Of a stretch of 64,000 bases of DNA, positions 1-42,107 are shown piece after piece. Source of the stretch: Setoptus koraiensis (lineage: Eukaryota; Animalia; Arthropoda); NCBI GenBank assembly GCA_048013815.1, contig CM106586.1, positions 7,998,001-8,062,000 on the forward strand, given 5' to 3'. A program made the translations under genes and the position numbers. The notes under the pieces are model-generated. The model did no database searches. It was given only the letters and a program-made list of their open reading frames with translations, and was not told where the DNA came from. How positions within the stretch are numbered: position 1 is the first letter of the stretch; the number at the start of each line of letters is the position of its first letter.

Positions 1-551
1 GACCGCCTTCAATGGTTTGCTTTACGCATTAATATGGTGCCGTCACACATCAACGAAGTCCACGTACCTCCTATTCGAATACGATCCTGGCACTGACACG
101 TAAGTATTTGATATCCATCATTGAGTTTGTTCGCAGCAAATTGTCAACATTGTATAACACTCATATATTTTCGCTTCGTTTTCAACCTGAACCAGTTGGT
201 CACTCTCGCCCATTAAAATTCCCGGCGATCTTTCAGATGAAATTCGTCTTTTAGCATTTTGAAACCAGCTCATCGAATGTGACGCATAGGCTAATTTATA
301 CTTGTGATGCACATTGGCAACGAATAACCATGGATATTTGATGAATGTCTGATTTACGGAATCCGATCGATTATTGAGAACATGAGAAAACTTTAAAACT
401 TGACAACAAACTGATATTTTTCTCTATGGTGCCATCTCTCATCAGAGTGGCCCCGATTCTTTATCAGCCAATCTGAACTATCTCGCTGTTGTGAATCGAC
501 GTTGATTGTGTTGTGACAATTCAGCTATGCCGCCATATAGAGGGTGGAAAC
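1..551 (+). repeat. Direct segmental duplicate of ~9879..10434 (Kelch 3' end, intron and 3' flank)
   Basis: Near-identical sequence by eye, e.g. 'cctggcactgacacgtaagtatttgatatccatcattgagtttgttcgcagc' and 'tcatcagagtggccccgatt' occur in both; offset about 9878. Confidence 0.95.
2..262 (+). CDS. 3' end of a Kelch-repeat gene (array copy 1, 5' part outside window); join(<2..99,196..262)
   Basis: Frame from nt 2 reads TAFNGLLYALIWCRHTSTKSTYLLFEYDPGTD, nearly identical to the end of ORF 8158..9981. A GTAAGT donor at 100 and CAG acceptor at 193-195 restore the Kelch Trp (YDPGTDT-WSLSPIKIPGDLSDEIRLLAF*). Confidence 0.85.
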
Positions 552-928: not shown

Positions 929-3042
929 CGGTTTCTGGTCTTTGTCTGGTTTCTACACGACAAACAGCATGTTAATGGTATATCAACTTTTTATTGACTT
1001 GCTATCATATAGAAGATGAGAAGAATACTTCGAAATCAAGTTTTCACTTTCTTTCTTCTTCAACTCATCTTCTACATCCGGATTCCATGGGGCTCAACAT
1101 GATGACTAATTTACTGCATTGGGGCACGTTTCATCACTCAATTGCGACATTGTTGATAATGCATTGATTGGCAACACTATTTGGCTGTGAAACAGTTGAT
1201 CAGTCTCAATTTTTCGGCCCATTTAACTCTATCACTGTATCATATTTCATCGATATAGCAGATGTTTTTTCCATGAATTGATGCTCGTGCAAGCGAATCT
1301 CTGATTTTGATCATCCATATCTGGTGAGATATCGTATACATTAGCAAGTCTAGATATGAAATGACAGGAAATGATGCAAAACATTTCTTATCGGATTCTG
1401 ATGGAGGACCGGGATGGCACAAACAGGCCAAATAAGAGACAAACGCCCCCTCTGATAGTCCATTGATTGTGATTTCCATCCCTCATCGAGCTGCAGGGAG
1501 AAGACACTTCGCGAGAATCGTTTGACCCGATGATAGTTGTCTCTCAATTTTGCACGATGCACCCATTGTTTCGAATGATGGAGAAATGTTTGTCTGTTTT
1601 CTCGTTTAACCCTTTTATTGCCCCATTGCAGACCAATTTATTACTAATAGATTTTTCGAGCGACAACAAAATCGAAAAAGACGGAATGCAAGAGAGTCTG
1701 TCTTGTATTCTATCATACACGATTCGTACCTGACACATTGTCGCAAAAAGAATTGCGTTTATCAGTGTGCCCGTGTCTTGGATGAGAGAAATCACAGAAA
1801 GAATCGCAATCAACACCACATACAACGGTGCACTGTGGAAGCTCGGTGCACCCTTTCGGTCAAGAGATGAACTTTTAACGAGCATCCATTAGTCGACGCT
1901 TTTAACGACCGTCCATTGGTTAACACTTTCAATTTGAAAGTTTCAAATGATCCATGTTGCTACGATGTAAATGGTATGGATCAGTGATACACTGTGATGC
2001 AGTTGCGCACACAATCTCAACCATTGCAAAACTGTTGCTGCTTTCAAATATCCTTCTAGAATATTCCACGCGATTGGGCAGCAATGAGGCATAGGCCATG
2101 AACAGTTTGCCTTTCTTGCTCCAACAAACTATCAATATCGTAGCTGACAGCGACTAATTACTGTCGGCTCCTAATTATTGTAAGCCTCTAATAGCATCGC
2201 GATCCATTGTACGAAATATGCCAGAGCCGTTTTTTATTGCTTTATTATTTCACGCACTGGTGTTAAATTTCAATCGGACTAGCCCTAGTGCCGTGATAGT
2301 GTCATAGTATAACGCGCTGTCCGACTGTCTTGATTTGGTGCCGCAATTATGTATCTCGAACCCGACGAAACTCAGCCAAACCACCTATCGTTGGGCCACA
2401 ACAGACAGGCTATCTGTTGCAGTGTATTTATTGAGTCGACGTATCGCCGACACAAACCAATCTCGTTCAATGTGGACGAGCAAAACGTTAATCTTTCGCT
2501 CTACTCGCTCTATTCGCTCTATGCAGTTTGTTCTGCTCGATCGCGGCAAAACATATTTGCACGATTGATTGCTCACGGGAATCAAGATGCTACATCTTGA
2601 TAAGTCGAGCTAACGCAACATCTTCCCAGCCTGGCAAGTATCAAATTGTGAATCATGTTTTACAGCCAAGGTAGATAGATTACATTGTGAGATAAGATTG
2701 TTTGTTCTCGTGTACGCGCATCGTGTATCAGCGCCAACTGGCGACTTGTTAGTAACGAGGCGCCAATAGGACAAACAAATCTGCTGGGCTATCATTTCGG
2801 TCACCGATGCGCTGCTAGCAGCAATACAACTGCCGTGCATACAACTCGACCATTTCCAGCACTCGGACAAGAAAAACGAAGAAAGTGAAATTTGATATTT
2901 TAAAACCCATTTAATATTATAAACCCCTAAATGTTATAAAACCCAACAGTATGACCGATATTTGCCCACATCTATCCACTGATTTTTCATCCAGCGCAAT
3001 CCGGCCAACAATCATCACTGCATTTGTCGCGACACTCAAGAT

Positions 3043-6000
3043 ATGCATGCCTCACATTCTAGAAATATGCACTGCGGATTGACCGTTGTTCAACCAAATC
3101 ATGGCTGCTCCAAATGGCCCCAAATCACGCAACTGCCAGTGCACAAACTTCAAATGCTCGACATAGACCAAGAACTGGACGCCATCAATGGCTTCACGTA
3201 TCATTACTTATCGTCCCATAATCAAACAAACTTTCTCAAAGAGATCGGCCACATTTCCATGTGCCGCGAAGAATTGAGACGAGACAACGAAACTCGCCGA
3301 CATCCCTTGATTGGTAACATCATAGAGCCCATTCTGCCATTGGTGCGCAATTTCAGACAATGGCAAACGACATCAACTGATCCGAGAGACACCTTCGAAA
3401 CGGTGCGATCAAAAATAGACAGGCCACCATGCGAGAATCATAGACACTTTCCGAGAATGTGGAGCTGTTATCGAGCTATAGCGGCCTTCATTATCGCACA
3501 GTGTCCAGAAGGATTGCAGCGCCTGACAGACAGGCAAGTGATTCAATCTACCAATAAAAGCGGCTCTCTGGGATGGCAAGAAAGGCTTGAGTTTGGCAAC
3601 AAATATGGCACTATGAGAGAATACATCGAAGACGTAGACCAGTGGAAATGTCGAGTGAATGAGCTCAAACAACATCTTTCGATGGGCGTCAGCAAGAATG
3701 GCATTTTCAGCATGACACCAAAGACCGAGGTGAAAGAATCGCAACGAGGCCGATTTATCTGGTCGTTGGGTGCCACCGGAAGAATCTACGAGAACATACT
3801 CTTTGGGAATTTTGACAATCTTCTGCGGGAGTTGCCGTATTGCGTTAGTGGAATCCCTCCGAATGATTTCGGGAATACAATCGACGATATTTTCACCCGC
3901 ATATCAAACCCCAGGGCAGTTTGCGACGACGTTTCGGGCTGGGACACCAGAGTCAGCTTCTCTATGTTGTGCATGGAGGCTGAATTTTTGCGATTGCTAA
4001 CTCACGACAAGCAGCACAAAGCGGAAATTCGAGCCATGTACAGACTGTATGCCTATCCTCTTGTTTGGATAGATAGACCGTCGTCATATAGCGACGATGG
4101 ACAAAATAGATATGACAAAGTTTTGTATCGTTTACAGGGCCAAGTGGCGTCTGGCCGTAGAGTGACCTACTCGATGAACACTGTCACCAATATCGTGGTC
4201 ACAATGTGTCGAGCTGCCTACAGCCAAGATGTTGACGAAAGTGACATGTATATTTGGACATTAAGTATGCTGATGAGCGGCCACTCGGAATTGTATGGCG
4301 GCAAAATATGTGGTGACGATTCGGTGATTATCATGAGCGAAGAAAATGCAAAAAAATATGCCAAGAAGGGGGCCAAGTTTATGAACGAAATTGGAATGCC
4401 CAGAAAGAATAAAAATCCCAACCAGCCGTCTGACATATTTGAGCGTATGCAGGACATAAACTTTTGCAGTCACATGTATTCACTGATTGAACTGCCCACG
4501 AGATCGAGAAGGGCAAACCTCTCGATGTGGGTCCCCAGAAGGAGCATAGGCGAGATATTGGCAAAGGCATCCATTATGAAAAATCACATTGAAGATAGAA
4601 TGATGCTGGTTTGGGCTAGGGCCCAGGGTCTCGGTCTTCTGGTCAAATATTTTCACATAGCAATCGTACGCTTGGTGGCACTGGCAATATTAAGTGCGAC
4701 ACCCAACGATCTCAGTTTTGATTGTTTGCCTGACAAGATGCGCAAAAGAAAGCCCTGGATTCGCGAGGGAGATGTCGTAGATATCATTAACAACTGTTTG
4801 TTTAGAGGCAAAATAGAAGGACATCGCATATCCAATATAAATGAGCTGGTCGCAATGAGAGTAATTCTCGGACGAGGAGAAACTTTTGACAGTCGGAGTG
4901 CCACTTATATCAATTGGCAAAGATCATTATTGGATATTGTTGAGGAATCAAGGCTACCCAACCAGCATTACGATGACTGGATTTCGGAGGCGATAATACA
5001 AGTGTCAGAACAAGAGCCGATTTACGCAATTTGTTGTCTCGCTATCGCGGAAGAGAGAGACGAAACCTTGGATGGTACAGTCATTGTCAATAAAAGGAGA
5101 ATTCCAGTCAGCAGGATCAAATTATCAGCTTGTTCGCCCATTTTCAAGTCGGCGTTCTCGGGAGGTCGCAAGGAGAAAGTATTCAAAGACGTGGATAGGG
5201 ACGCAATGGAGATGATCATAGATTTTGCCAACACAAGCCAACTGTCGATCACAAGTACAAATGTTGAGACTCTTCTCGCAACATCAACACGGCTACAAGT
5301 GCGCAGAATTCGCGCCGGATGTTTGGATTATCTGGAGCGTCATTTGGATGGCGATAATTGCGCAAAAATGCTCAATATAGCAGAGAAATTCTCCTGTGTG
5401 AGATTGTCAAAATTAACGAAAGAGTTCATAGCAGAGAATTTCGACCATGTTGCCATACGAGACGCTGATCTGCTGACTTTGAAGTATTCTCAATTGATGG
5501 ACATCATCAAATGCGGCAAGTTGAACTCACCAGCAACAACTGTCAGCAAGGCTGTCATGAGATGGTGCACTCATGACTATCTGAGATTTTGCAATGATCG
5601 TATCGAGCTGCTTCCTGATTTGTTGGAACACGTTCGCTGGTCTCAAATGGATTTGCATCAATTTACAAATATTTTCACTCATCCGTTGATCAAACGAAAC
5701 AAACGTTGTCGCGAATACATTCGTCGTGCCGCAATCAATATGTCGTCAAGCAATCAATCGGAGCTATCAATCAATATGATCACAATGGCACAACCTGGCA
5801 GGCGCCGTTGTCCTGCATCTTTGTATTTGTTTGCGACAGACACTAGTCGAGCGTATGTCAAAAGATTTAATGCCCACCTAAACGAATGGTTTGATTCAAT
5901 TGAACCGGAAACGCTTCACTCATCACGCTCATCATGCGAATGTGATCCGATCATTGTGCCAGCTCAAGATGTGATTTACATCATGGATCGTGCCATAAAC

Positions 6001-6813
6001 GATCGAACGGGCTCCATTGAGACTTATCATCCCGAACGAGGGACCGTCTATGAAGTGTCAGCTCTAAAACCTTACGACGGCTGGAGTTGTACTGCGGTCT
6101 TTCACCACAATTCGCTCTATTTCAACGATGCTCGAACAACGGATGGTATATACGAGAGTAGATTCCTCAAGTACTCGCTAGGTAAAAAGTATAAAAGATG
6201 GACAAGATGTACGCCCATGTCCTCAATGCAACATAGATGCGAATTGGTCAGTCTCAACAATTATATTTACTCCATAGGAGGCTACAGCTCCTCACCTCCA
6301 AATTTCACGAGAACTGTCGAACGCTATGATTCCACCACTGATCAATGGCGTTCGATAGCACCCATGGGCAAATTGAAAATATATGTTAAAGCAGAGGCTC
6401 TTCATGGATGCATTTACGTGATTGGGGAGGATTGTGCTCCAATGGATGAACCGTTTAGCTTCAGTGGAGAGAAATACAATCCACAAACTGACACTTGGAC
6501 ATGCATTTCGTCACCACCGATGATGGAATGTGGAGATATAATACTCAGTTTGAATGCATTTGACGGTTTGCTCTACGCACTAATTCGGACTGATGATTTA
6601 GATGACGATGATGGGGAGAAGCACAAATTATTAGCATACAACCCCGACACTGATACGTAAGTTTATTTTATCAATAGTTGAGTTTATTTTCGTCATTTTG
6701 GCAATATCTTCTAACACTAATACGTCCCTAATTTTTTCACCTGAATCAGATGGACAGTTTCGCGGATCACTCTCCCCGACGGAATTAATTTTCATTGTTT
6801 GCTAGCATTCTGA
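3043..6813 (+). CDS. Chimeric protein: flavi-like (jingmenvirus-like) NS5 RdRp domain fused to BTB-BACK-Kelch; join(3043..6656,6750..6813)
   Basis: One open frame. NS5 features: pre-A TSTDPRDTFETVRSKIDRPP, motif G-like KSGSLGW, F MTPKTEVK..RGRFIW, A CDDVSGWDTRVS (3922-), B QVASGRRVTYSMNT (4141-), C ICGDDSVI (GDD 4312-4320), E INFCSHMY, thumb PWIREGDVVDIINNCL, C-terminal WQRSLLDIVEESR. Then BTB (~5070-5370: RIKLSACSPIFKSAFSG...LQVRRIRAGCLDYL), BACK (NCAKMLNIAEKF...AVMRWCTHD) and Kelch repeats (YIYSIGG...VERYDSTTDQW; GEKYNPQTDTW). A GT..AG intron at 6657-6749 restores YNPDTDT-WTVSRITLPDGINFHCLLAF*. The 5' end is uncertain. Confidence 0.9.
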
Positions 6814-7018
6814 GGGCTGCCCTTGATCCAGAGTGATTAGTTTCGCGGATAATTTACAACTTTTAAAGAGATTCGAGTGCACAAATCGAGAAGTAAGACT
6901 AAAAACGAAGAGATTCCATGAATGTCTTGTACTAATGATGGTGTGGCAATTAAACATCTTGAGCTGCAATAGATTAGCTTGTGCGTTAAATTCAGTTTTT
7001 CCATCTTGTGTAACCGGG

Positions 7019-7518
7019 NNNNNNNNNNNNNNNNNNNNNNNNNNNNNNNNNNNNNNNNNNNNNNNNNNNNNNNNNNNNNNNNNNNNNNNNNNNNNNNNNN
7101 NNNNNNNNNNNNNNNNNNNNNNNNNNNNNNNNNNNNNNNNNNNNNNNNNNNNNNNNNNNNNNNNNNNNNNNNNNNNNNNNNNNNNNNNNNNNNNNNNNNN
7201 NNNNNNNNNNNNNNNNNNNNNNNNNNNNNNNNNNNNNNNNNNNNNNNNNNNNNNNNNNNNNNNNNNNNNNNNNNNNNNNNNNNNNNNNNNNNNNNNNNNN
7301 NNNNNNNNNNNNNNNNNNNNNNNNNNNNNNNNNNNNNNNNNNNNNNNNNNNNNNNNNNNNNNNNNNNNNNNNNNNNNNNNNNNNNNNNNNNNNNNNNNNN
7401 NNNNNNNNNNNNNNNNNNNNNNNNNNNNNNNNNNNNNNNNNNNNNNNNNNNNNNNNNNNNNNNNNNNNNNNNNNNNNNNNNNNNNNNNNNNNNNNNNNNN
7501 NNNNNNNNNNNNNNNNNN
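7019..7518. other. Assembly gap (500 N)
   Basis: Run of exactly 500 N, probably a placeholder size. ORFs in the track spanning it are artefacts. Confidence 1.
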
Positions 7519-8157: not shown

Positions 8158-10140
8158 ATGGACACTCCGGAAATCGAATACATATTTGAGACAGCCGTCC
8201 AATGGTGTGACATTATTTTCTCTCACCGCAACGGTGATAGCTGTCAAGGCGTGCTGGCAAATAGGGGTTCCAGCAAGAAAGAAGCAGCAATGGCCCTTGG
8301 TCTGGCCAAAGCACGAGCACTCGATATGCTCGTCAAGTATATGCACATACCGATAATACGCTCGATGGGGCTGTCAATTTTGAGTTGTACATCAAACAAT
8401 ATCGGCCCTGATAATCCACCCGAGGAGATGGAGAAAAAGAACCCATGGATTTTGAAACGAGATATGATAGGCACCGTTCGAAATTGTTTCTTTGGAGACA
8501 AAACACTCGAACAGCTTACGCCGTGCCTGATTGATCTGGCCGCAACAAACATACTGTTCGAACAAGATACAACTTCCGACGACCAAATGCCCATTTCTAT
8601 CGATGAGCAGAAATCTCTTCAGAATCTTGTCAAGCACTGGAGTGAGCCACCTAGCATTGAGCATAATTTGGATGTATCTAATTGCATAAGTCTACACATA
8701 TTGGCGCAAAAGTTTTCATCTGAGGATTTGTCGAAATCTACGAGAGAGTTTATTGTGGAGAATTTCGACGATGTTGCCAAACAAGATGCATTTGTGATAT
8801 TAGAGTCAGGTCAATTGATTGAAATTATTAAATGTGACAATCTGAAATCTTCTGCAGCAACTGTGTACGAGGCTATCGTAAAATGGTGCAATCATGATTC
8901 TGGTATCGATCGTCGGAAGCTCCTTGCCGATATACTGCAACATGTTGATTTCTCGCAAATGGAGCCTGATTATCTCGTCGACATTTCTAACGATCCGTTG
9001 ATTGACGATGACAAACGATGTCGTAAGTACATTAGACACGCTATGATTCGATTGCTTCCCAGCAAACAAACTACATCGAGCAGCTCTACTTCTCGAGAAA
9101 ACATGGATAAAGAACAGTCCTCAGAAAGCTGCAGAGGGATTTCATTGTATTTGGTTACGGGAGAGTCCAGTAGAGAAAATTTTCTCAAGCAATACGATGC
9201 CGCTATAAATCATTGGATAGATATAAAATATATAATATCCAATATATCAACCAATAATAATCCACATATAAGTATGGTAAGTGACGCATTGTTCATCTGC
9301 GATTGGTTGTGGAAACCCAGAGAAATCTATCATCCTAAGATATTCTACCGACATACATTGCCACCCCCCAGATGTCACACTCACCTGATGTATACTAGTG
9401 GTGCAGTCGCTCACCTTGGTTCGCTGTACTTGAACATCACTGATCGGAACCAGAAGGAATATAAATGCGAATTTCTAAAATATTCTCTCGAGGATGAGAA
9501 GTGGATCGCCCGCAGCACCATGCAAACTCAACTTTGCGAACAGCAATTGGTCAGCTTGAACAATTACATTTATGCAATTGGGGGAAGTAGCTCTCTGGCA
9601 CCTACAAACACTGTCATGTGCTATGATCCTTCAACTGATCAATGGCAAGCGCGGGCACGAATGCTCAAAGCGAAAGAGAAATTAAAAGTTTCAGCATTTC
9701 AAGGACTTATTTATGCAGTAGGACTTGCAATAGATTGTGATACCGTTGAGCACTATCGCTATAGCGGAGAAAAGTACGATCCACACATCGACACTTGGAC
9801 GCGCATAGCATCTCTGGATTGCGAATTACTCTCAAAAGAGCTAACAGAAAGTGTTAAAAGTGTGTATATTGTCAGTTTGACCGGCTTCAATGGTTTGCTT
9901 TACGCATTAATAAGGTGCGATCACACAGAAACGGGGCACACGTTCCTCCCATTCGAATACGATCCTGGCACTGACACGTAAGTATTTGATATCCATCATT
10001 GAGTTTGTTCGCAGCAAATTGTCAACATTGTGTAACACTCATACATTTCCGCTTCATTTTCAACCTGAACCAGTTGGTCACTCTCGCCCATTAAAATTCC
10101 CGGCGGTCTTTCAGCTGAAAGTCGTTTTTGGGCAGTTTGA
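8158..10140 (+). CDS. Paralogue: NS5 thumb/C-terminal fragment fused to BACK-Kelch, BTB largely deleted; join(8158..9977,10074..10140)
   Basis: LVKYMHIPIIRSMGLSILSCTSNN...PWILKRDMIGTVRNCFF aligns without gaps to LVKYFHIAIVRLVALAILSATPND...PWIREGDVVDIINNCLF of the 3043 gene (25/55 identical). It then joins directly to IEHNLDVSNCISLHILAQKFS (BACK start) and Kelch repeats (YIYAIGG, GEKYDPHIDTW). An intron at 9978-10073 gives YDPGTDT-WSLSPIKIPGGLSAESRFWAV*. Confidence 0.88.
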
Positions 10141-10431
10141 AACCAGCTCATCTGATGTGACGCATAGACCAATTTATACTTGTAGGCAATGCACATTGGC
10201 AACGAATAACCATGGATATTTGATGAATGTCTGATTTACGGAATCCGATCGATTATTGAGAACATGAGAAAACTTTAAAACTTGACAGCAAACTGATATT
10301 TTTCTCTATGGTGCCATCTCTCATCAGAGTGGCCCCGATTTTTTCTGAGCCAATCTGAACTATCTCGCTGTTGTGAACCGACGTTGATTGTGTTGTGACA
10401 ATTCAGCTATGCCGCCGTATAGAGAGTGAAA

Positions 10432-10623
10432 ACCACCTCAACCACTATGAGAGTTAGAGAGTAAAGTTGAGATTGGACTATGTATGCGTGCTACGATGTA
10501 GGTATATGTTTGCTATATGAAGGCTAACGCACAAGTGCATAATATATGGAGATTTCGCTCGTATTTATAGTGAGTGCTGAACATTCCTGAAAAATGATAG
10601 ATAGACAGATGCAGATGCTTAAT
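10432..10623 (-). promoter_or_regulatory. Inverted copy of the 737..928 segment; TATA box on minus strand facing the Kelch 3' end
   Basis: TATTTATA at 10562-10569 (TATAAATA on minus). Repeat identity is seen directly; promoter function is inference. Confidence 0.35.
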
Positions 10624-11314
10624 CTTGTGTAACCGGGCTGAACTTTTGCAATTTGTAACATAATTCTTCGATTGAATTTGATTCTTCTAATTTTATTACA
10701 GTATTCATTGAGAGTAGTATCGACGATTGCCGTGATCGGTCTCACGTCTCATTGGTAGAGAGAACAGAATCGGTCGTTAAAACTACTCCGATTCGGTTTT
10801 GATGCGAGCCAAACGTACGTTTTTCGGTTTCTTCCAGCCGAAATTAGTGATCAGGGGAGGAAAGGAGGCCCCCACGGTCTAAGAAAGACAGCGAGGTGTG
10901 GGATATCGTCCCCCTCAAAAGTTGATAAAAACATACCCGATTTCTAGTTTTTAAAACAGAAAACAGATTCGTATCTCCTTAGTAATCCGATACCCTCAAT
11001 TTAAAAACTGATACGGTGATCTTGAAGGATCATTATTCACGGCGTTGCTGCCAGAGCGATAGAAGATTCACAGGTTAGATTGCCCTAAAGGCTGATGTGG
11101 CATCAGTTTCGATAGGAAGCAGCGTATTAAAGTAGCGCTCAGCCTGAGAGAGTGCTAGTTGCTGACTTGAGATCATTCAATCACTAATGAAAGTACCAGA
11201 ATGTTGATCAGAAAAGAAAAGACTCGATCCCGAATCGATTCGACCCTGGAGAGAGACCGTAGGTATTGTTAGATAGAAAAACAGGAATATTGAGAGATTA
11301 GAAGATCCGAAAAA

Positions 11315-12463
11315 ATGGCCCCTGCACCCATGCGAACAATTTTGTATTGGGCGATATGTGTGTTGTTGGCGATCTTTTTCGTATCCTATCATGAACAGTT
11401 GGTCTCAAGTGCTGACCAGCAAATCGAGTTAACAGACAAGGCGGAATGGGGTGACTCAAACGAACGATATAACGAACGAGCAAAAAATAAGTCACCGTTT
11501 TCGGGCGATAACAGAAGAAGAGAAGCGAGGCGTTCGAATAGGCTGCCGAAAAGACAATTGAAAAGCCTAAAACTGCGCTGGGCCGAGGCTAACGTCAACG
11601 ATCTTAATCCTGTCTCGTGTGGTGCTACATATGATATGGTCACCAATCATGTTTCGGATACTTCTCCTCAATTAAGAATGATTGGTGCCAATGGAATCGA
11701 TGTAAAACGACATCCATGGGTGGTAACTATAAATATGAGAATGCTCAATGAATCTTGGGCTCGCTACCGGTGTAGTGGCGTTATAATTCACGAGGAATTT
11801 GTATTAACGACTCGAGTGTGCGCCAATAGTATTGACATAAGACCAGGCAGCAATTTCGAAGTTAGAATAGTGGCTGGCGCAAACGATCCATTTAAAGGAC
11901 CATTCGATGATGCACAAATTGGAAATATTTCAGCACAACAGAGCCACCCAGATGCTGATTTGGCAGTAGTGCAAATGGGAAAACCATGGATATGGTCGGA
12001 TACTGTCCGACCTATTTGCGTTGCATTCCCTCAGTATGATACCGCCGTTTTTCACAATGTTACTGCCAAAGACATGGCTTTTATCGCTAGTTGGGGAACC
12101 GATAGCTGGAGCGAAGATGAGCAGTTCACTCTTCCACATCAACTACAAATTTCTCGCGTCACTGTTCGGGGTGCCAGTGTTTGCGCGAGAAAAGCAGAAG
12201 AGTTGAATTCACGGTTTGTGTCCGATTTGATGTATTGTTCATTTTCACCCTGTCGTTCGAAGCGGAAAACTTTCCCTTGCGGAGGTGATCGGGGTGCACC
12301 ACTCCTGTATCAAAACAAAAATAGAGGCAATGTTTGGGAAGTTCAAGGTATATTGAGTCATTCTGGCGGCAAGCATTGCGCTAACGACTTTATCGTCTAT
12401 GAGAAGCCGAGTGAATACTACAAAGATTGGCTAGAAGCATACGTCCATCAAGACCCTTACTAG
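11315..12463 (+). CDS. Secreted or membrane-anchored trypsin-family (S1) serine protease homologue, predicted non-catalytic
   Basis: N-terminal hydrophobic segment; HPWVV, CSGVIIHEEFVLTTRVC (TAAHC site, His absent), DADLAVV (Asp present), VRPICV, CGGDRGAPL (GDSGGP site, Ser replaced by Arg), W-V-GILS. Single exon. Confidence 0.85.
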   Translation: MAPAPMRTILYWAICVLLAIFFVSYHEQLVSSADQQIELTDKAEWGDSNERYNERAKNKSPFSGDNRRREARRSNRLPKRQLKSLKLRWAEANVNDLNPVSCGATYDMVTNHVSDTSPQLRMIGANGIDVKRHPWVVTINMRMLNESWARYRCSGVIIHEEFVLTTRVCANSIDIRPGSNFEVRIVAGANDPFKGPFDDAQIGNISAQQSHPDADLAVVQMGKPWIWSDTVRPICVAFPQYDTAVFHNVTAKDMAFIASWGTDSWSEDEQFTLPHQLQISRVTVRGASVCARKAEELNSRFVSDLMYCSFSPCRSKRKTFPCGGDRGAPLLYQNKNRGNVWEVQGILSHSGGKHCANDFIVYEKPSEYYKDWLEAYVHQDPY

Positions 12464-14044: not shown

Positions 14045-16381
14045 GAAATCGCAGTACAAATTCGTATATTCGCTATGCGCGCGACCGACCACCACAACTG
14101 ACACTTGTGGGTATCGCTTCCCAGGTACCCAACGATTCCGTTGGCACCCGTCGACGGGCCCATCCGCGATGTTGCCGGCAAATCGCGGCAAATCTCGACA
14201 ATCGCGGCAGTCGCGGCAGTTTCGACAGCCCAATCGGCGGCTCGCCGGAGTGACGATGCGACGGCGCCAACGGGTTGCCGCGGACACAACTTCCGGCCGC
14301 GAGAGTCACAATAAATCTACGCGTAATAATAAACGCTCGACGGTTTGTGGCTGGCGATTGTTGCAGCCAGCAAGCGAACGAGCGAAACGAAGCAAATGAG
14401 CGAAACGAAGCGAACGAGCGAAATGAGGCGAATGGATGCAACAATGGACAAACTGCTGGCCAGCGCGATATTAATGGCACCATTGATCACTGTCGACTGA
14501 CGGACAGAGACAAATTCGCGGCCATTAGTCAGCGCCCGTTGGAATTGCTTGTCACTGGTTGTTTGTTTGTTGTTGGCAGTCAGTTCAAGTGGCAACCAGT
14601 GGGACTGTCGGCCGGCGACGGCAGCGCCAAACTCATTAGTTTGGGCACAACAAGCGGCCGACAACGAACAACAATGATACAAATTGATTGATTTCGTTTT
14701 CGTTGGATCGCAATTTGAATTTGCTCAATTGCGGCAAATTATTTGCATTAGTTGTGCGCCACATTTGCCGCCACTTTCACTCGCAAGTTGTCAGTGCGTT
14801 CGTTGGTTGTTGTTGTCGGTCCGTCGGTTGTTGTTGTCGGTTCGCTTGTTGTTGCTGTCGGCTCGCTCGCAGTCGGCCGGCCGGCCGGTGAGCTGGCGAG
14901 CGCAAGGTGAGCTGATTGCCGTCCACCTACACCCAATAAAACACATCAGGTGATCGGGCGATCAGGTGAGACAGACGCACACTCGCGCCTTACCGTTATG
15001 ATTTGTGGTTGTGCGTTCGCTCGCAGCGGCAACAACAACAACAACAGCAACAGCAACAGCGGCAACAACAACGACAGCAACTGGCGAGTCGCGCTCACCT
15101 GTTGCACTCACGCCGTTCGCCTGCCATTGTTTGTAATGAGCAGCATTATCACCACCACCGACTACTGCACTATTGCTCGCAACAACAATGGTCTCGATTG
15201 TTTGTCCGTCCCCCTCTCTCGCTGGCTGGCCGATCATCTGTTTGCCGACGTTTACGAGTTGGTGAGTGTGTGTGTGTGCGTGTGTGTGTTGGCAACATCA
15301 AGGTGTCTTACCATTTTAAGAAGAAGCTGCTGCCCGAGTTGGTGTTGTCTCGCTGGCATTGTTTCATTGTTGATACCTACACCTGTGCGAGTAACGGTTG
15401 TTGGGCACGAGCTGGCTGTTAGTGGCCGTTTGTTGTGATTTGGCGCCACTTTGTATCGTCGTCATCAGCAGCAGTTGACTGTTGTTGTTGTTGTCGTTGT
15501 TGTTTGCAGCGATTCGTTCATTGTAGCCACCATCAGATCTGGCTAATCGCTGATATTTGTGGCCAGCGCAGTTATTGGGCGAGTTCAATGTCAACGCGCA
15601 CGCCAACCGCATTCGAAATACATGACTTTTGACACGGGTCGCTTCTTCGCCCGAGCGCTTCTCGCCGTCCGACCGACCAACACAACAACCAATACAACAA
15701 CCAGCCAACCGCCAGCCGAACACAACAGCCAGACACAACAGCCAGACGCAACAGCCAGCAAACAAACGAGCCAGCAGACGAGCGAATCGTCGGCAAATAT
15801 CATCGCAAATTGAAATTGAAACGATTCCCGAAATGATTTCTCGTTCGTGTCATCATTACACGCGCGCATTATTTGCACCGTATTATTGGCGGCCATTGTG
15901 CAATTGTATCACTTGTTGCACGGCCACTTGTTGAGTGCAGTCGCGTGCAGTGTATCATCGTTTGTTATTGCATCATCTCTTAGTTTATCACCCGTTAGTT
16001 AATTATTTGTTAGTCTATCATTTGTTATCATTTGTTAGTTAATCATCTGTTAGTTTATTATTTGTTAGTTTATCATTTGTTAAACAGTCGGCTCGCCATT
16101 GGCCATTGTTAGCTCGCGCGCGTCACATCACATGCATCACAAGTTCACAAGTGGCCACAAGTCGACACAAAGCGCCATTAATCATAGCTCGATATGGGTC
16201 AGTGTTGGCCAGTGTGATGACGCAATTACCACAGACACAAACACAACGCAATGCAGCCATGGAACCGAGTGACAGACCCAAACCAGCATCAGCAGCCAAC
16301 AAGTTACACAGTGCGTGCACCCCAGCGACAAAAGTAAAAAACAGCAAACCGTTACAATTACCGATCACACCAGCCAAGCTA

Positions 16382-19300
16382 ATGAGCGGCCACACAAATC
16401 GGGACACAATCAGTGCACCACTAATTATCTTTTATATATCGCTCACATGTTTTGCAACCATTTCCGGGGCCCTCACAACTGGGCCGCCCAACAACCAGAC
16501 CCTAGCGGCCGCCCAAGCAACCAACCAATCAAGATCGCAACAAGCGACAGCCAAACTAGACGAACTCTATGATCTGCAACAACAATCAGTGATAAACAGG
16601 CGCATTGGCGCCCCCGAGGATCTGACCGACTCGTCGTCGCTGCAAGCGGAAGAGTCGCGTCTCGATGCGCCGGGCGCGGTCGTCGCTGTGGAGGCGCCCG
16701 GCCATTTGCAGCAGCAGCAGCAGCCGCCGATCACCTCGCAGCAACCGACTACTTCACAGCGACCAGCCAACACCAACGCAAACCAATTCCAAGAACAGTT
16801 CAGCAACGGAGCGGGCAACTCGTACTACTCGCTGGCCACTGACGGAACCAGCCGCTACCAGTTCGGCTTCAACACCGTGGGCCCGTCCGAGTCCGCGCGC
16901 CACACATCGGGTCCCGCCGAGCCCAATCTGATGCGCGAAGAGACCAAGCTGCCCGACGGAACTGTCGTGGGCCGGTACGGTTACACGGACCCGTTCAATG
17001 TGTTCCGGATCGTGCACTATGTGGCCGACGCCAGCGGCTATCACGCCAGCGAGGAGGTAGACACAAACGGCTCCATGCAACAGTTGGTGCAGCAACAGCA
17101 AAACATCGACAATTATCCGTTGAACGGAGAGGGCGCCATCAAGTTTCAGTTGAACAGGCAGCTGCTGAAGGTGCTGCAAACGCTGCAACAACAACAGCGA
17201 CAACGCCGACAACTGTGGGCCTCGCCACAGCGGTCGAGGCCCACCGGCCCGGGCGAACGGGCGACGCGAGCCGCCGGCAGCGGCGCAGCGGATCCGCTGA
17301 TGGGCAGCGACAGTCTGGCGCTGTCGTCGTCGTCGCCGGCCAGCGGCGACTCTCTCAACGACCACGAGAGAGAGATGGTGGCCGGAAGTGTGCACTATGC
17401 GCTCAGAATCAATCACGGCAACTCGGCCGCAAGACAGCCCGCAGCGGCGCCGGCGGCGCAACCCGACGCCACGGTCCTGTCCCATTTGCGGCACATATTC
17501 AGGCAGGCGAGCAGAAAGCCGGCGCACCAGGCGGCGCCCCAGCAACTTGTGGTGCCCCAGCAACTTGCGGCGCCCCAGCAGCAGGTGGCGCCAGTGCATC
17601 AGGGGGGCTCACAAGCGCAAACGACCATCGGCGGCCAGCACTTCGGGCTCGATCTGGAGGCGCGCCGCTCGAGACTGCCCAAGCCGATAGTGACGCCCAC
17701 CAGTTACTCGATCGGCATAGATCACCAGCAGCCGCAGGTGCCGGCGGCCGGAAGCGGCGGCGGCCCGCAGCTCGGGCAGCCCGCGAGCGGCGGCTACGTG
17801 GCCCAGTTCAGCTACCCGTACCGCGGATTCCAGCAGGCTCAGCAAGCAAGCGCCAACTCTCACCATCAGCAGCAGCAGCAGCCGTCGTCTTATCCTAGTC
17901 TCGCCGTCATACAGCAACAGTTGCGACAAATGCTCAAAAACTATGCCGGCAACAACACCGGCCAAGCGCCCGCAAAGCCCCAGTCGCCCAACGATTTGTC
18001 GCCGGCCCCCAGCAGCCACCGATGGTCGCAATCGGCCCAATGGTCCAACCTCAATGGACAGCGCTCCGTGGCGCCCCTGGTGACGGGCTCGCCGACCTGG
18101 TCCATACTGAACGACAACTACAACGGACAGCACCAACTGGTCATCGATCACAACGACAGAGACGGACACCGGCAGGCCTATCTGCAGCAACGGTTGCAGG
18201 CCAACAACAGCAGCGCCTCAGCAGATCGCGAATCGGCCGTTCTCGCAGAATTGGCCCAGCTGAAACTGAACCAGCAGTGGGCCCTCGATCAGCAGCGACA
18301 CCAGCAGCGACAGGCGTACAACAGCCACTGGCCGGCCACTTCCGGTGCCGTCTCTAACCGACAGCTAGGCGGCGCCACCGATCTGCTCAAAAGCGCCTCA
18401 ACTGGCTCGAGCAGCGTCAGCGGCAACGTCGGCGCGCCATCGACACAACAGCAGCACGGTCACACAAGCACTCCGCTCGTGTTACATAATAGCACGGTTA
18501 CAGCCAGCGGCAACCATCTCAATTATCTCGACAGGTATGTCGAGTTTGGCATGCGCAAGGCGCTCGCGGCCGAGCCCGCCTTCGTCATTGGCCTGCCCGA
18601 GACAGGCGCGGTCCCGGCCTTCAATGGGGCGGCCCAGCGGACAGCGGCCGCGCCACTGGACGGTGCCGATCAACAGGTTGACATAACGAAAAATTACGCC
18701 GCCACATTCACGCTGAACAATTTCAGCCCGCCGCTGTATCATCCGCGCGTGCACGAAACAAGGGCGGCCTCTGTGCCCGCCGAGCCGCTTTCGGCCGGCT
18801 CTGTGTCGTCGGTCGGCACCACTAGCGACGGCACCGCGCACTACTCGAGCGTCATAACTCACTCGATCGGGCACGCGCAGCAACCGCGCTACGATTATCC
18901 GTTGTGGGCCGGCCCGCTGAATGCGCGCCCGCAGCAGTACGGCTCCGGTTCGCCGGGCGCAAGTGCGGACGAGTTGCAATCGAGCGCCACCAGCGCCAAG
19001 CGGCAATCGGTGGCGACAAGTGGTGGCGAGACCGCAAACAAAAGAGAGCCACATTCGGGCGCGTATGGAACTCGCAATCAGCAGGCGAACGGCGACAGAG
19101 CGCGATCGGCGATAATTAACGCCGACACGGGATCCGCTCTGGCGGACGATCTGTATCTGGACGAGAGCGAGCAGATCTTGTCCACCGTCAACGACACCAG
19201 CGCTGGCGTGGCCGCCAGCGGCAACAGCAGGGCTCGCAATCCGGACAGGTCAAAGAAACTGTCAAACATATTCAAGGCTCGCTCGTCGGCCGGCTCTTCC

Positions 19301-19423
19301 GACCTGGAGGCGGTCGTGCGATCGTCGGACGGTGCCCACTTGGCCAAGATCCGCCGCCCTGTGCCCATCAACGCCAAAAAGCCCGCCAAACAGCAACAAC
19401 CGCAACAACAACAGCAACAACAA

Positions 19424-19458
<35 letters not shown>

Positions 19459-22321
19459 ACAACAACAGCCGAGAACAATCAATTATGCAACGAGCAGCCT
19501 GGCGTCACCGGCAACGACAGCAACACCGATTGTCATTTCGGCAACAACAGCTGCTACCGCTTCTGTTGCTGTTGCAACCGCCGTACCGACGACAGGTGCA
19601 TCTTCTGCGCTGGTCAGCGCAGCCACCGTTCGAGCCGACGGCGGCAGCGCAACAACCGACCACCAGGTGACCGCAACAACGCAAGCGGGCCAGCAGCAAC
19701 AGCAGCAACAACAGCAACAACAGCAACGACAGCAACAGCAACAACAGCAGCAACAACAGCAGCAACAACAGCAACAACGACAGAGACAACAGCAGCAAAA
19801 CAGCACGTCGGATGAACCTGCCGCAACGCTAATTAAATCAGCAGATATGGCGACTGCCAGAGACGCTGGCAGCGAGCACAAAAAGAGTGGCCACTCCGGT
19901 CAAGCGTCTCTGGCCAGCAAAAGCGCCAATCGGACAATGACAATGCCAAACAAACAATCGCTCACCAACGTCATTGACCTGGCCAGCATTTACAATGTGT
20001 CGGCCGGGGCAGCGCTCACAAACAACTCCATGAGTCTGTCCACAAATCAATTAGCGAAATTAGTTAGTCTCGTGGTGGACAAATTAGACAAGCCGGCCGG
20101 ATTGTTTCTGAGAGCGGACAAGAGCCCTAACTCGATACTGGTCGACAATACACTGGCCACCAGCGCCAACAATAACAACAATAACAACAATAACGCTCAC
20201 CTGTCCAAGCCTAACGCCACCACCAGCGCCACCAGCAGTGCCGATGTCACCACAAACGCTAGTGTTGGGCCCGAGTGGCCAGCGTCAGGCGATTCGAGTG
20301 CCAACAACAACGACAACAAGCTGCCTGTTGTCAACAATAATCTTATAACGGGCCAATTGCAAAACATTAACTCTGTAATGGAGCAAGGTGATTTCCTGTC
20401 GAAGATTAGCCTAGATTTGGACAATTTTGACAGCGTTCGTCAGACGACCAACGAAAGTTTTGTTGGTTTGAGTCAGCACAATGTCGATCTGGACACTCAA
20501 ATGACTCTGATGAATGCCACTGCAGCCGAGAGTAGAATCGAGAAAACTTTCGTCAGTCCAACATCGTCGATGCAAACGATCGAGAAGCAAAGTAAACCAA
20601 CCACCAGCGGCCCCCAAGTGGCACCATCAGTGTTGCTTGCAACGACAACAATTGCACCTGTTACACCGAAAGCAACAACAATCACAACGCCCATATCAAC
20701 AACCGTATCGGCGAGCACGACAACATCAGCACCGACAACAGCAATTAAACCAATAACAACAACAACGACATCGGCACCGGTGACGCAAACAGCACCCGCG
20801 TCTGTATCATCGACGACCGCTCAGATACCAACGACAGCCAGACCAACACTACCAATAACAACAACGACAACCAGACCAACACTGCCAGTAACAACGACGG
20901 CAGCCAGACAAACGCCGACAACAACAACAACAGCAGCCAGACTAACGCCGACAACAACAACAGCAACAGCCAGACCGGCACCAACAATGACAACAACAAC
21001 GACAACGACAACACCCATACCAGTGCCCTTAACAAGCAGCAACCTCACGAGGCCATCGTTGGCTTTCGGAGCGGAAAGCCCACAACGATTCGGAGACAGA
21101 GCAAGTGCGGCCAACAAGGGCGATGGCATCTCCTTATTTAACAAAGAAACAAACAGTGAGACGAAGAACAGGAAATTCAATCGAGTTGTAATAAAACGGG
21201 GCCAGCGCATAGTGGCCAAATTTGACGCAAATCAATCAAATTTGTTCGACGCCACCAAGAGGCCCCTGGCCATCAACGAGGCCCAAAATAACGGCTCAAC
21301 AGTCACAACAAACTCACGAGATCCACAAACTACAAACAGTGATCCTTCATTCAGGCCAAAACACTGGAGACGCACCGTCAAACGAGTGCCCATGCTGGCC
21401 CGACTGAACCAGTCTGACAGTAGCCAACAGGCCCCAATTTTGTCGGCCATGATTAGCACGATGGTGGCGTCGGACGAACGAAACACCAACAGCTCTCTGG
21501 TGTCGGCGAACTCGACAACTATAGCGGTGACCACAACAACTACAACGACTACGACGACGACAACAACAAATCCAGCGCCAATCAAACGAACGGAGCAAAC
21601 TGACCCATTGCCCTTAAATTCTTACATAACATCATCGACATCGACATCTTCGCCATTGCCTAGTGATTCAAAAGGCAGCAACGACAGCAGCAATGTTAGT
21701 GTCGCTGACATCAAAATGGCCAGCAACAGTACCGAAGATGATAATTTGCATAAACACAACTCGGCCAACTTGAGGGCCCAGCCGGCAGATGGCAGCATCG
21801 CCGGCAGGTCGCTTAGATCGGCCTCCTATCTGGACACTTTTCTACACGCTCAAGACGACGATCTGATGAGCTCAGAGTCAATTAGTTCACAGACGACACA
21901 ACTAAACAATTTTGACAGTAGTGCCACCAGTGCCAGAAGAAGGCCAACACTGACAACTTCCGGTCAGCTTGGCCAAACGTCAGCGCTGTCGTTGGTGGAT
22001 ATAAAACAGAAACGCAAAAAGCGAAAGCCCAAACTGTTGTGCATTGAGGTGGCCCCAGACGACAGTGCCGAGACAATGGTGGACGAAGATCAACCACAGT
22101 CGCAGCCACAGCCAAAAACACAACCACAACCACAATCGCAACAACAGCAGCAACAACAGCAGCAACATCACAATCGCCAGCAGCAGAATCAAGCCAACAG
22201 ACAGGGCCTGCAAATGACAGGCAAGCAGCAGCAGCCAGCAGCTTCGATGGCAAGACCATCGTCGCCAGTGGTCAGTTTCGGCGACGACAAAAACTTTGGA
22301 AAACGGTTGTCAATGCGATGA
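16382..22321 (+). CDS. Giant cuticular protein with one Rebers-Riddiford chitin-binding (chitin_bind_4) domain and long Q/N/T-rich extensions
   Basis: Single open frame 16106-22321. Signal-like LIIFYISLTCFATISG after Met 16382 (earlier in-frame Mets at 16217 and 16259). RR motif YQFGF...REETKLPDGTVVGRYGYTDPFNVFRIVHYVADASGY at ~16855-17045. PIVTPTSYSIG motif, polyQ tracts, mucin-like Thr-rich region ~20640-21030. Confidence 0.8.
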
Positions 22322-39225: not shown

Positions 39226-40413
39226 TTTTCTTTCAATTGTTTTGATATTGGAGCACAATAATATTTATCCATTAACAACACATAACAAATCCGTCTCTTT
39301 GTTGATCAATTGTTAATTGTTTTCATCACACAACTGGACGATTTGATGGATACCACGTTATGCTGATGTTCACAATTTAAATGCATCACTTGCCATGTCC
39401 GTCACACATTGACTTTGCCCAGCCAATTTATTATTGGCGTTTTACAAAACTGATGTTACTAACGCTAAAAGTCAACTTTGGTGTTTCATCATCACCATCA
39501 TGTATTATATCATTATTATCATTATCATTATTATTATTACTATTATTATAATTAAATTGTTGTAATTATTACCACCATATATCACGTAGCTTCGTAAGCA
39601 TCATTAATAATCATAGGATAATCAACTACAACACAATACACAAGCAACAATAATAAACTTAATGTAAGCGACTGAATGTAGCTGTTTCTTTGTTTGTTGA
39701 ATGTTCAATTTAACAAGAGTAAGTTTCGATTTCCGATGCCAGATCGTTTCGCAAGATTACCTTGCTGGGAGCGCTGTAACTAGTGTAAAGCAATTGCATT
39801 CCCACATTGATTTGATCTGGTGCAGTATGTGGAATAAAGCCGATGATTATCATCACTGTATTGCAGTAGTGCACTTATGCCTATTCTTTGCCATTTCGTC
39901 GTGTGTCTAATCTAGATTATATTGTTGTTAGTAGAGCATATTGGATGAGAACCTATTCCATGCTTCATGTGATGGTTGCAGATAATCGTCATAACAATGG
40001 CACAAACATATCAACAAGTATATCAACATATAATATGATGATATGTGAGTATCATTTATTTAGTTTGAAATAGTCGTTTCAGCAAAGTATCGTTCATTTC
40101 CACCTTATATCCCATTTGACCGTGGCGCTATCTCGTTTGAGCATCTAACATTTACGTCAATAATTAGACAGACAAATGGATTCCGCGCTGTTATTGATCC
40201 GACATCCATTCGAAAAGGATTGCAGCATTCAGATGATGTGAGACACTCGCGACTGGTCCAAAGTCGAAACAACCACAAACAAACACCAAATAAAGCAACC
40301 ACGCTCGACAACAACCCAATTTCTCCAACCTCAATTTGCCATCTACAATCTGGCATATATCAGCACACCGTCTAGGTCACTTTCGCACCTCAATACAACA
40401 GCCACCAAACAAG

Positions 40414-42107
40414 ATGAGTTCCACTCTCCATCAAGCTCAGTCTCATCCCGTATTAAGAACATGGCAAAGCCAGAGAAATGACATTAATCATCATGCCGAT
40501 TTTGTTTTGCCCATGTTCATAGGAAACGATGACGATGCCATTGATCCCATCGAGTCCATGCCAGACGTAAACCGTTACGGTTGTAGCACCGCTATAAAAT
40601 ATCTAGAACCATTAGTTTACAGTTTTGGCTTGAGAGCTGTCCTATTGTTTCCCGTTGTAACCAAGCCCTCTAATATTAGCGAAGATCAGGTGGGTTTTGT
40701 TGGTGATGATCAAGACGACGACGAGGATGATACAGACTTCACGTCGTCTACTAGCGCGCGGTCATTGTCAACTGAGAGCAACAGTGCTGATGGCTCAGAT
40801 GACGATAGCGATGATGAGCCCAAAAAGGGAAGAATCGTCTCTATGAAACGAAGACCATCAACTTCCAGTAGGGACAAACGAACGCGAATATTTTCGGCCG
40901 AAAATAGCGGCCCCAAGATGGGCCTTCTGGAAAATTCTAAACATCAGGATGTCAGATTGATCAAGGGTCTGGCGTTGAGAGAGGAAAACAACCCTGTTTT
41001 GAGATTGATACCAAAACTGAGAGAAAAGTTTCCAAATTTATTGATAATTTGCGATGTATGTTTATGTGCATTTACATCTACTGGTCATTGTTGTTTATTC
41101 GACGATAATTCAATCAAAATAAAAGCATCATCATCATTAGCTAACAACAACGCAAACTACGTCAACATTGTTGACAGCCATGATATTAGTGATAAAACAG
41201 TAGATCAGACTTCAAGAGTAAGCGACGTCAATCCAGGTGAAAGGAAAAGGTTATCGAACATTGAGCTAACACAGTATCTAATTTCAAACAAGATCTCTTG
41301 TCAGTATTTGGCCAGATTAGCTATCGAATATGCATCGCGCGGTTGTAATGTGTTAGCTCCCAGCGACATGATGGACGGACGTATACAAGTTATTAGAGAA
41401 AAGTTGAATGAAAACCATCTACACCACGTCTCTATCATGAGTTACTCCGCGAAATTTGCATCCTCATTCTATGGTCCGTTCAGGCAAGCAGCCGCTAGTA
41501 AGCCACAATTTGGAGATAGAAAGGCCTATCAGTTACCTCCAGGATCTAGAGCGATGGCGCTCAAAGCGGTCAGCCGTGATATAGATCAAGGTAAGATGAA
41601 ATCAATTTTGCATACCTATAATCTTCTGGTTTCGGCGATATTTCTCACACATAGAAAAAAGAACAAGATGATTAGCTGCAAAAAAAAGTCTCGCTCGCTC
41701 TCTCTCTCGCTCTGTCTGCCTCTCCCTTGCTCTAATACTCTACATCTCTCTTTCTTTCCCTCAATATCACACTGATCACAAACGCACAATGTATTCTCTA
41801 CTGACACACATTCTCGTTGTATCTTGTAACATTCGCAGGCGCCGATTTCGTCATGGTGAAACCCGGAACTCCATATTTAGATATTGTTAGGGATGTTAGA
41901 GAAAGCCATCCATATGTGCCGATAGCAATATATCAAGTTTCAGGCGAGTATTCTATGCTAAAGCTAGCCGCCGAAGCCAATGTACTGGATTTAAAGTCGG
42001 CCCTTCATGAATTACTTGCTTCTTATAGGAGAGCTGGAGCAAACATTATCATCACCTACTTCACACCGGCGATATTAAGGGGTGAGCTGCAAGTTCTTGT
42101 GGCCTAG
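40414..42107 (+). CDS. ALAD: Delta-aminolevulinic acid dehydratase (porphobilinogen synthase); join(40414..41590,41839..42107)
   Basis: HPVLRTWQS, Zn-ligand [90 protein letters not shown]. Phase-1 GT..AG intron at 41591-41838. Confidence 0.97.

Follow-up and report, generated by a model that had tools for sequence, protein, structure and literature searches.

How does the polymerase of an RNA virus come to stand at the head of an animal gene, and does the animal still use it as an enzyme? The question is raised by one open frame in the window, by which we mean the whole 64-kb stretch of DNA analysed here. The frame runs from stop to stop over 2983-6660 on the + strand (1,225 codons), and Pfam recognises in it Flavi_NS5 and Flavi_NS5_thumb, followed by BTB, BACK and Kelch. 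This RdRp-BTB-BACK-Kelch fusion is encoded in DNA and lies in a host scaffold: the 64-kb sequence carries host genes around it, namely two cuticle-protein genes (Chitin_bind_4) and ALAD, and also a SAC3/GANP gene and a gene for a translational GTPase that each occupy a single long frame, which points to an intron-poor arthropod, perhaps an eriophyoid-type mite. The features referred to in the following are these:

1..262, + strand: 3' end of a third family member, with an intron at 100-195; its 5' part lies beyond the window
3043..6656, + strand: long coding exon of gene 1, with leader, RdRp, BTB, BACK and Kelch in a single frame
3109..4989, + strand: jingmenvirus-type RdRp domain, beginning in the MTase-RdRp linker and ending with the thumb
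3721..3783, + strand: motif F, KTEVKESQRGR at 3721-3753 plus Arg 3781 (Lys 3721, Glu 3727, Arg 3751, Arg 3781)
3925..3948, + strand: motif A, DDVSGWD at 3925-3945, with Asp codons 3928-3930 and 3943-3945
4138..4182, + strand: motif B, GQ..SG...TY..NT, including SGRRVTYSMNT at 4150-4182
4312..4320, + strand: motif C, GDD
4393..4407, + strand: motif D region, G..RK, invariant columns kept; the letter D is our presumed assignment
4462..4473, + strand: motif E, FCSH
4717..4758, + strand: priming-element loop as placed by alignment, first aromatic absent, second (Trp 4756) kept
5053..5343, + strand: BTB domain (Pfam BTB, E 1e-15)
5359..5670, + strand: BACK domain (Pfam BACK, E 1.7e-13)
5821..6656, + strand: Kelch propeller of six predicted blades, the last finished by the next exon (Pfam, model strands, Foldseek)
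6657..6749, + strand: predicted GT-AG intron of 93 nt, at the same place in both paralogues
6750..6813, + strand: predicted last exon of about 21 codons, completing the last Kelch repeat
8158..9977, + strand: gene 2, an RdRp thumb remnant (8158-8649) followed immediately by BACK-Kelch, with neither palm nor BTB
9978-10073, + strand: predicted intron of gene 2, followed by its predicted last exon at 10074-10140

Gene 1 is a host gene in which a jingmenvirus-type RdRp domain is joined in frame to BTB-BACK-Kelch. Its nature as a host gene is evident from the 3' end, where the apparent stop of the open frame falls within the GT donor of the predicted 6657-6749 intron, a short exon follows, and an intron is also predicted in the two paralogues. 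P0034 and P0044, the closest homologues of the host half, end at the column of the gene 1 exon end, and the spliced homologue P0056 continues with W. At the 5' end the first ATG at 3043 is a candidate start codon, with further ATGs at 3067 and 3154 and a possible splice acceptor nearby, ending at 2993. An ATG-led frame of 43 codons (2951-3082, + strand) overlaps the leader in another frame than gene 1 and is possibly an upstream ORF or a chance occurrence. Several other genes in the window have peculiarities of their own. A trypsin-fold gene in one frame (11315-12463, + strand; Pfam Trypsin E 1.2e-20) starts with an N-terminal hydrophobic stretch, and its catalytic His and Ser positions, located with what we take to be the trypsin motif consensus, are apparently replaced, so that the sequence is likely to encode an inactive protease homologue. 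The Pfam match of the ALAD gene (40294-41775, + strand) comes in three stretches split by long acidic and Asn/Ser-rich insertions, and a low-complexity frame of 2,092 codons (16043-22321, + strand) has one Chitin_bind_4 domain close to its start.

Independent sequence data cover the joint between the two halves. A single contig of X1, a run of study P1 that is independent of the window assembly, spans 2934-6955 and thereby all of gene 1 with 1 difference, at a depth of 100.6 as compared to 84.2 for the contig of the upstream flank. A contig of X4/X5 bridges 4496-5078, across the end of the RdRp. X4 and X5 are apparently one data set, which makes two independent data sets in addition to the possible source; X7 (share 0.09, 6/30 bins) and X2, X3 and X6 (possible source sample) were left out. 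The six runs added by study carry next to none of the window's words, which is no proof of absence. Between runs at least 7 substitutions fall in the frame, among those listed 4 silent and 3 non-synonymous, and the sole frame indel among those listed measures 6 nt. The codon of the invariant motif F arginine differs silently from the window in both X1 and X4/X5. A gap of 500 N at 7019-7518 separates genes 1 and 2, and none lies inside gene 1; the adjacency of the two genes thus depends on the scaffold join. A 17-nt word ahead of this gap is seen again at about 10621-10637.

Is the viral domain complete? A sequence-only reading of this DNA had listed motifs A, B, C, E and F as intact and free of frameshifts, and all of them do lie in a single stop-free frame at the sites given, albeit motif F sits upstream of the range 3922..4470 assigned to them and motif E extends 3 nt beyond it. 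The motif F residues, invariant in 47/47 full-length relatives, are also present in gene 1; KIDRPP is found at 3412-3429 and, in the C-terminal part of the domain, WQRSLLDIVEESR at 4915-4953 and YDDW at 4969-4980. Pfam assigns the domain to Flavi_NS5 (E 8.6e-15) and Flavi_NS5_thumb (E 1.2e-16), and phmmer matches it to the ALSV and JMTV RdRp structures with E 7.5e-78 to 5.5e-74, with orthoflaviviruses reaching 8.8e-24 at best. For 3109-4989 an AlphaFold model built from 55 sequences (pLDDT 91.5, pTM 0.93) predicts an intact fold that superimposes best on the JMTV and ALSV RdRps 8wim, 8wu2, 8wil and 8wu3 (Z 47.6-48.3, rmsd 2.6-3.4 over 548-576 residues), the best orthoflavivirus reaching Z 39.2. 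The resemblance to jingmenvirus NSP1, which had been proposed, is thus borne out by sequence and fold comparison, and the phylogeny agrees. The domain also runs to its natural C-terminus, as had been claimed, with the match extending as far as the final helix of its viral counterpart (chain residues 603-617 of 620-622). The description of the capture as domain-precise holds for the viral part, which begins in the MTase-RdRp linker (tblastn with relatives puts the onset of homology at 3082-3115), but in the reading frame about 20-45 unrelated codons come ahead of it.

Across all 55 aligned rows, gene 1 among them, 21 columns are invariant, and of the 47 columns shared by at least 90% of the 47 full-length relatives the gene 1 RdRp keeps 44, the 3 changed columns affecting no catalytic Asp, Lys or Arg. 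This retention of 94% compares with a viral leave-one-out median of 98%, a lowest quartile of 96% and a minimum of 84%. The priming-element loop is the least confident part of the model (pLDDT <50 at model residues 546-549). Two priming-element aromatics have a described role (PMC11014250), and the alignment columns at 4717-4758 would correspond to them; the first aromatic is missing in many full-length viral relatives too, the loop being variable among viruses. Taken together, the gene 1 RdRp is a complete jingmenvirus-type domain with all catalytic motifs present. A cellular RdRP of RNA silencing was also considered for gene 1 and rejected: such enzymes have a double-psi-barrel fold, whereas the model has the right-hand viral fold, so that gene 1 could only work like one.

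What is missing is the methyltransferase, in agreement with the earlier reading: neither Pfam nor a dedicated profile sees one, be it in the frame or in the window. The profile was made from the methyltransferase halves of six relatives and recognises a control NSP1 with E 1e-111, but in all six frames of the 64-kb window it has no significant match (best E 0.061, elsewhere than gene 1); among about 90 tblastn fragments upstream that were considered as remnants, the best E of 0.12 is what chance produces. Gene 1 therefore does not amount to a whole jingmenvirus NSP1, having no N-terminal MTase and lying on a 64-kb scaffold instead of a segment of ~3 kb. The 8-nt stem-loop element of tick jingmenviruses is not enriched in the window either (89 matches versus 80 expected), with no exact match near gene 1.

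Where did the polymerase come from? Phylogenetic analysis places the gene 1 RdRp inside the jingmen-like viruses, on a branch shared with PVLaJlV1 and UYO08033 (support 100/98), the two nearest known viruses, which are 42-44% identical to it. Three further proteins, P0003, P0004 and P0005, are 41-44% identical and likewise without methyltransferase, and they lie on contigs of 7.9, 17.9 and 8.2 kb, in contrast to the MTase-bearing Logan/JGI representatives with a recorded contig, 12/12 of which lie on 3.1-3.9 kb. They are probably further endogenous polymerases; five more MTase-less matches are either fragmentary or come from contigs of 1.5-2.3 kb. The group of gene 1 with P0003-P0005 receives 94/93 under LG+G4, 79/86 under a mixture model and an SH-aLRT of 89 in a quick large tree, the first two trees having taken 21 and 14, respectively, of the 68 RdRp matches. 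The free trees favour a single origin of the four MTase-less proteins, but in the AU test, in which P0001 and P0002 are the viruses PVLaJlV1 and UYO08033, the alternative of window plus P0002 is rejected narrowly (p 0.046) and that of window plus P0001 and P0002 is not rejected (p 0.126). Monophyly of the four is accordingly not firm in these sequence data, and a single ancient capture behind gene 1 and P0003-P0005 is suggested by them. The called frames of P0003-P0005 have neither BTB nor Kelch; on their Logan contigs these proteins have unrelated N-terminal leaders, and P0003 and P0005, which are sisters, resemble each other in their hydrophobic C-terminal tails. None of the relatives at 7 metagenome and 29 viral loci is flanked by host sequence, all being short viral contigs or flavivirus genomes as judged from length and content. 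One match, P0043, carries the label 'ANT-5 [Toxocara canis]' but represents a fragment of a jingmen-type RdRp, and a 974-aa protein in its cluster comes from a contig of 3,278 nt; we take P0043 to be Toxocara canis larva agent virus.

The host half is predicted to fold as BTB-BACK-Kelch in that order (pLDDT 84.9; Foldseek TM 0.70-0.77 by target against Kelch domains), with the KBTBD2/KLHL adaptors of Cullin-3 as best matches. It resembles adaptors such as KBTBD2 and KLHL3 in domain order and fold but differs from them by the polymerase at the N-terminus, the altered BTB loop and the loss of many conserved Kelch residues. The BTB loop at about 5167-5178 lacks 5 residues relative to homologues: the alpha3-beta4 loop retains its Glu, the residue two before it is charged in gene 1 while it is Met or Leu in 35/46 homologues, and the five residues after the Glu are missing. 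This hydrophobic-x-Glu loop is presumably the Cullin-3 contact. Overall the host half keeps 25/38 conserved columns as compared to 35 in P0034 and 34 in P0044, which are 33% and 32% identical to it, and its retention differs from the 44/47 of the RdRp (Fisher p 0.0016), suggesting that the BTB-Kelch half has been relaxed relative to the polymerase core.

How old is the fusion, and has it been under selection? The sequence-only reading had left a choice between selection for activity or fold and a recent insertion, and had considered the divergence of the paralogue to speak against the latter. The gene 2 thumb scores 62.8 bits to gene 1 versus at most 35.6 to every other protein compared, and genes 1 and 2 have 12 private residues in common versus 0-6 for each of six outgroups, so that both thumbs descend from one capture. 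At four-fold sites the two genes differ in 9/17 positions of the thumb and 32/60 of BACK-Kelch, about 0.9 substitutions per site each, the thumb estimate resting on just 17 sites; Nei-Gojobori dS differs from it, with 1.0 for the thumb and 2.4 for Kelch. As the gene 2 thumb is nearer to gene 1 than to any virus and is nonetheless separated from it by about 0.9 substitutions per four-fold site, the fusion is old, and comparison of the two genes shows that it predates their duplication. This divergence, together with the shared private residues, upholds the objection to a recent insertion. High third-position G+C speaks against great age: it is 0.50-0.52 in the viral parts of both genes (RdRp 0.52) versus 0.37-0.40 in four host genes, so that amelioration is incomplete.

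In addition, the two copies have fared differently since the duplication. Relative-rate counts in the thumb favour gene 1 with 40:11 (P0001, p 6e-5) and 44:10 (P0002) and, with the other outgroups, 36:12, 31:11, 30:15 and a non-significant 32:18, that is, with p <0.05 for 5/6 outgroups. In BACK-Kelch the counts of 47:38, 44:31 and 30:37 give gene 1 no advantage, the Kelch halves having changed equally. In simulations of unselected drift of at least 0.1 per site, 0/2000 trials remained free of stops, and at 0.1 per site all 11 catalytic-motif residues survive in 6.5%. The paralogue comparison thus bears out long purifying selection on the open frame and shows that the viral domain of gene 1 was selectively kept after the duplication; with the rate asymmetry, the drift trials and the 44/47 retained columns, the choice left by the earlier reading falls on old and selected rather than recent. 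Gene 2, whose thumb is open without a palm, suggests that this copy, at least, has a binding role; a search with gene 2 returned 7 generic Kelch proteins. The end of the third member is 93% identical to that of gene 2. A direct repeat (1-551 and 9879-10433, at the kelch 3' end, 93%) and an inverted repeat (737-928 and 10432-10623, 94%) show a recent duplication and inversion. Summed depth of X1 at 1-234 amounts to about six times the gene 1 value, a hint of further family members elsewhere.

Several known systems come close to gene 1. Viruses of the PVLaJlV1/UYO08033 type have in common with it the RdRp fold and motifs A-F as well as the linker and the end of the thumb, but gene 1 is encoded in DNA in a host scaffold, has no MTase and continues into BTB-BACK-Kelch and a predicted intron. 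Jingmenvirus polymerase EVEs have been described in ticks (PMC9501327; PMC13155725) and, in the form of short pieces, in midges and water striders (PMC9752770), and chuvirus EVEs linked to exons in horseshoe crabs (PMC12282059). The NSP1 EVE of Ixodes ricinus likewise adjoins a host gene in an arthropod genome (PMC9501327), with a coding region of 2,733 bp in about 27-35% of the ticks of one region (PMC9501327, PMC13155725) and DNA >76% identical to ALSV (PMC13155725); unlike for gene 1, the available text of the two reports does not describe in-frame fusion or long-term selection (PMC9501327, PMC13155725). In eEBLL-1 of Eptesicus bats a viral RdRp with conserved motifs is also intact and under selection in an animal genome, but it is a whole, unfused negative-strand bornavirus L with transcription shown (PMC4865735). 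The totivirus-like STORM array of Scheffersomyces yeasts, as here, consists of tandem domesticated RNA-virus genes with asymmetric paralogues, one of which has the full domain; it differs in being fungal, from a dsRNA virus and mostly capsid, fusion to a host domain not being described in the available text (bioRxiv 10.64898/2026.05.24.726934). Both halves were found together in 0/174 homologous proteins compared (68 matching the RdRp, 105 the BTB-Kelch half), the representative protein search behind this number covering the best 150 of 15,329 matches; an ESM Atlas search gave no usable match. A flavi-like RdRp fused to BTB-Kelch was not found in the literature searched either, though supplementary EVE tables may list the locus. 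Within these searches it is the combination of viral RdRp and BTB-Kelch that is new, selected viral RdRps in host genomes being already known but rare.

What could such a protein do? The explanation we favour, and to which we give just short of an even chance, is that the gene 1 RdRp is an active enzyme that copies the RNA of related viruses into uncapped dsRNA and thereby triggers RNA interference. Taken by itself, continued enzymatic activity is likely, as the polymerase core has been maintained since the old duplication, and the role is probably antiviral. A cDNA of a jingmen-like segment 1 would have been inserted at the 5' end of a kelch gene with hardly any introns, taking over its expression. 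Catalysis would be the selected trait, since gene 1 retains the residues that bind metal and NTP while its BTB-Kelch half is relaxed, a pattern that suggests selection for catalysis rather than for fold or RNA binding. Cognate viral RNA would be the most likely template, because a jingmenvirus RdRp freed of its MTase binds the viral 5' stem-loop and copies such RNA: MTase-free ALSV RdRp binds the 5' RNA with a KD of 0.16 uM and copies a stem-loop-bearing mini-genome (PMC13681716), and MTase-less JMTV RdRp is active with increased abortive products (PMC11014250). The BTB-BACK-Kelch half might, speculatively, now be more of a dimerising or localising scaffold than a Cullin-3 adaptor, and the uncapped or double-stranded products would feed silencing.

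Alternatively, the polymerase might serve as bait that docks on viral RNA or replicase partners while the replication complex is destroyed through Cullin-3 brought in by BTB-BACK, catalysis being incidental. The complete BTB-BACK-Kelch fold, the KBTBD2/KLHL adaptors as best matches, the retained loop Glu and the fact that the thumb-only gene 2 stays open would fit such a ligase, but the loop has a charge in place of its hydrophobic residue and no longer has the five residues after the Glu, 13/38 conserved columns of the host half are not retained, BTB is missing from gene 2, the called frames of P0003-P0005 have neither BTB nor Kelch, and a pure bait does not need catalytic aspartates; we consider it unlikely. 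Somewhat more doubtful still is a dominant-negative decoy, a capless polymerase that sits on viral promoters or replicase partners and stalls replication without RNA interference. It would make sense of the MTase loss and the altered priming loop, of the tight stem-loop binding of MTase-free ALSV RdRp (PMC13681716) and of the rise of abortive products without MTase (PMC11014250); alone it leaves the retention of every catalytic residue unexplained, and jingmenvirus grew in a tick cell line despite an integrated NSP1 copy (PMC9501327).

To the same low degree it is conceivable that gene 1 stands in for a lost cellular RdRP and uses host, transposon or any viral transcripts to amplify silencing RNAs. 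No cellular RdRP gene is present in the eriophyoid mite Aculops lycopersici, other Acari having 1-5 (PMC7738191), the window is that of an arthropod (two Chitin_bind_4 genes) poor in introns (conserved genes of 653 and 346 codons in single frames), and related MTase-less RdRps lie on three other long contigs. Against this stand the preference of jingmenvirus RdRps for terminal initiation and viral stem-loops (PMC11014250, PMC13681716) and the monophyly of the four MTase-less proteins, which is not firm. A recent neutral insertion that is in frame by chance is very improbable: young EVEs are expected to have intact frames, as the Ixodes ricinus NSP1 insertion does (PMC9501327), and third-position G+C is above host level, but the deeply diverged thumb is common to gene 2, the relative-rate asymmetry and the drift trials speak for selection, and the closest known virus is only 42-44% identical. 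An assembly chimera of live virus and host kelch gene, for which the 500-N gap in the scaffold at 7019-7518 might be adduced, is hardly credible, refuted as it is by independent contigs across the joint at host-level depth, by the same thumb-Kelch order in gene 2 and by the gap-free sequence of gene 1.

Co-opted viral RdRps are very rare, and none with an assigned function was found in the literature consulted. In gene 1 the source is a positive-strand flavi-like virus and the fusion partner is of a class tied to ubiquitin ligation, and gene 2, a paralogue without the catalytic palm, provides a built-in control. The locus makes directly testable the long-standing question of whether a viral polymerase, once captured, serves an animal as an enzyme, and it records an old infection of the host by a virus lineage like that of PVLaJlV1. 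If the host belongs to the mite group reported to be without cellular RdRPs, the captured polymerase may explain silencing amplification there. As an outside chance one may go further and imagine that a mite lineage without a cellular silencing RdRP took a jingmen-like polymerase once, dropped the capping domain and keeps gene 1 and P0003-P0005 as dsRNA-making silencing enzymes, gene 1 having been further fused to BTB-Kelch. If this were true, a viral replicase would perform the task of a lost core eukaryotic enzyme.
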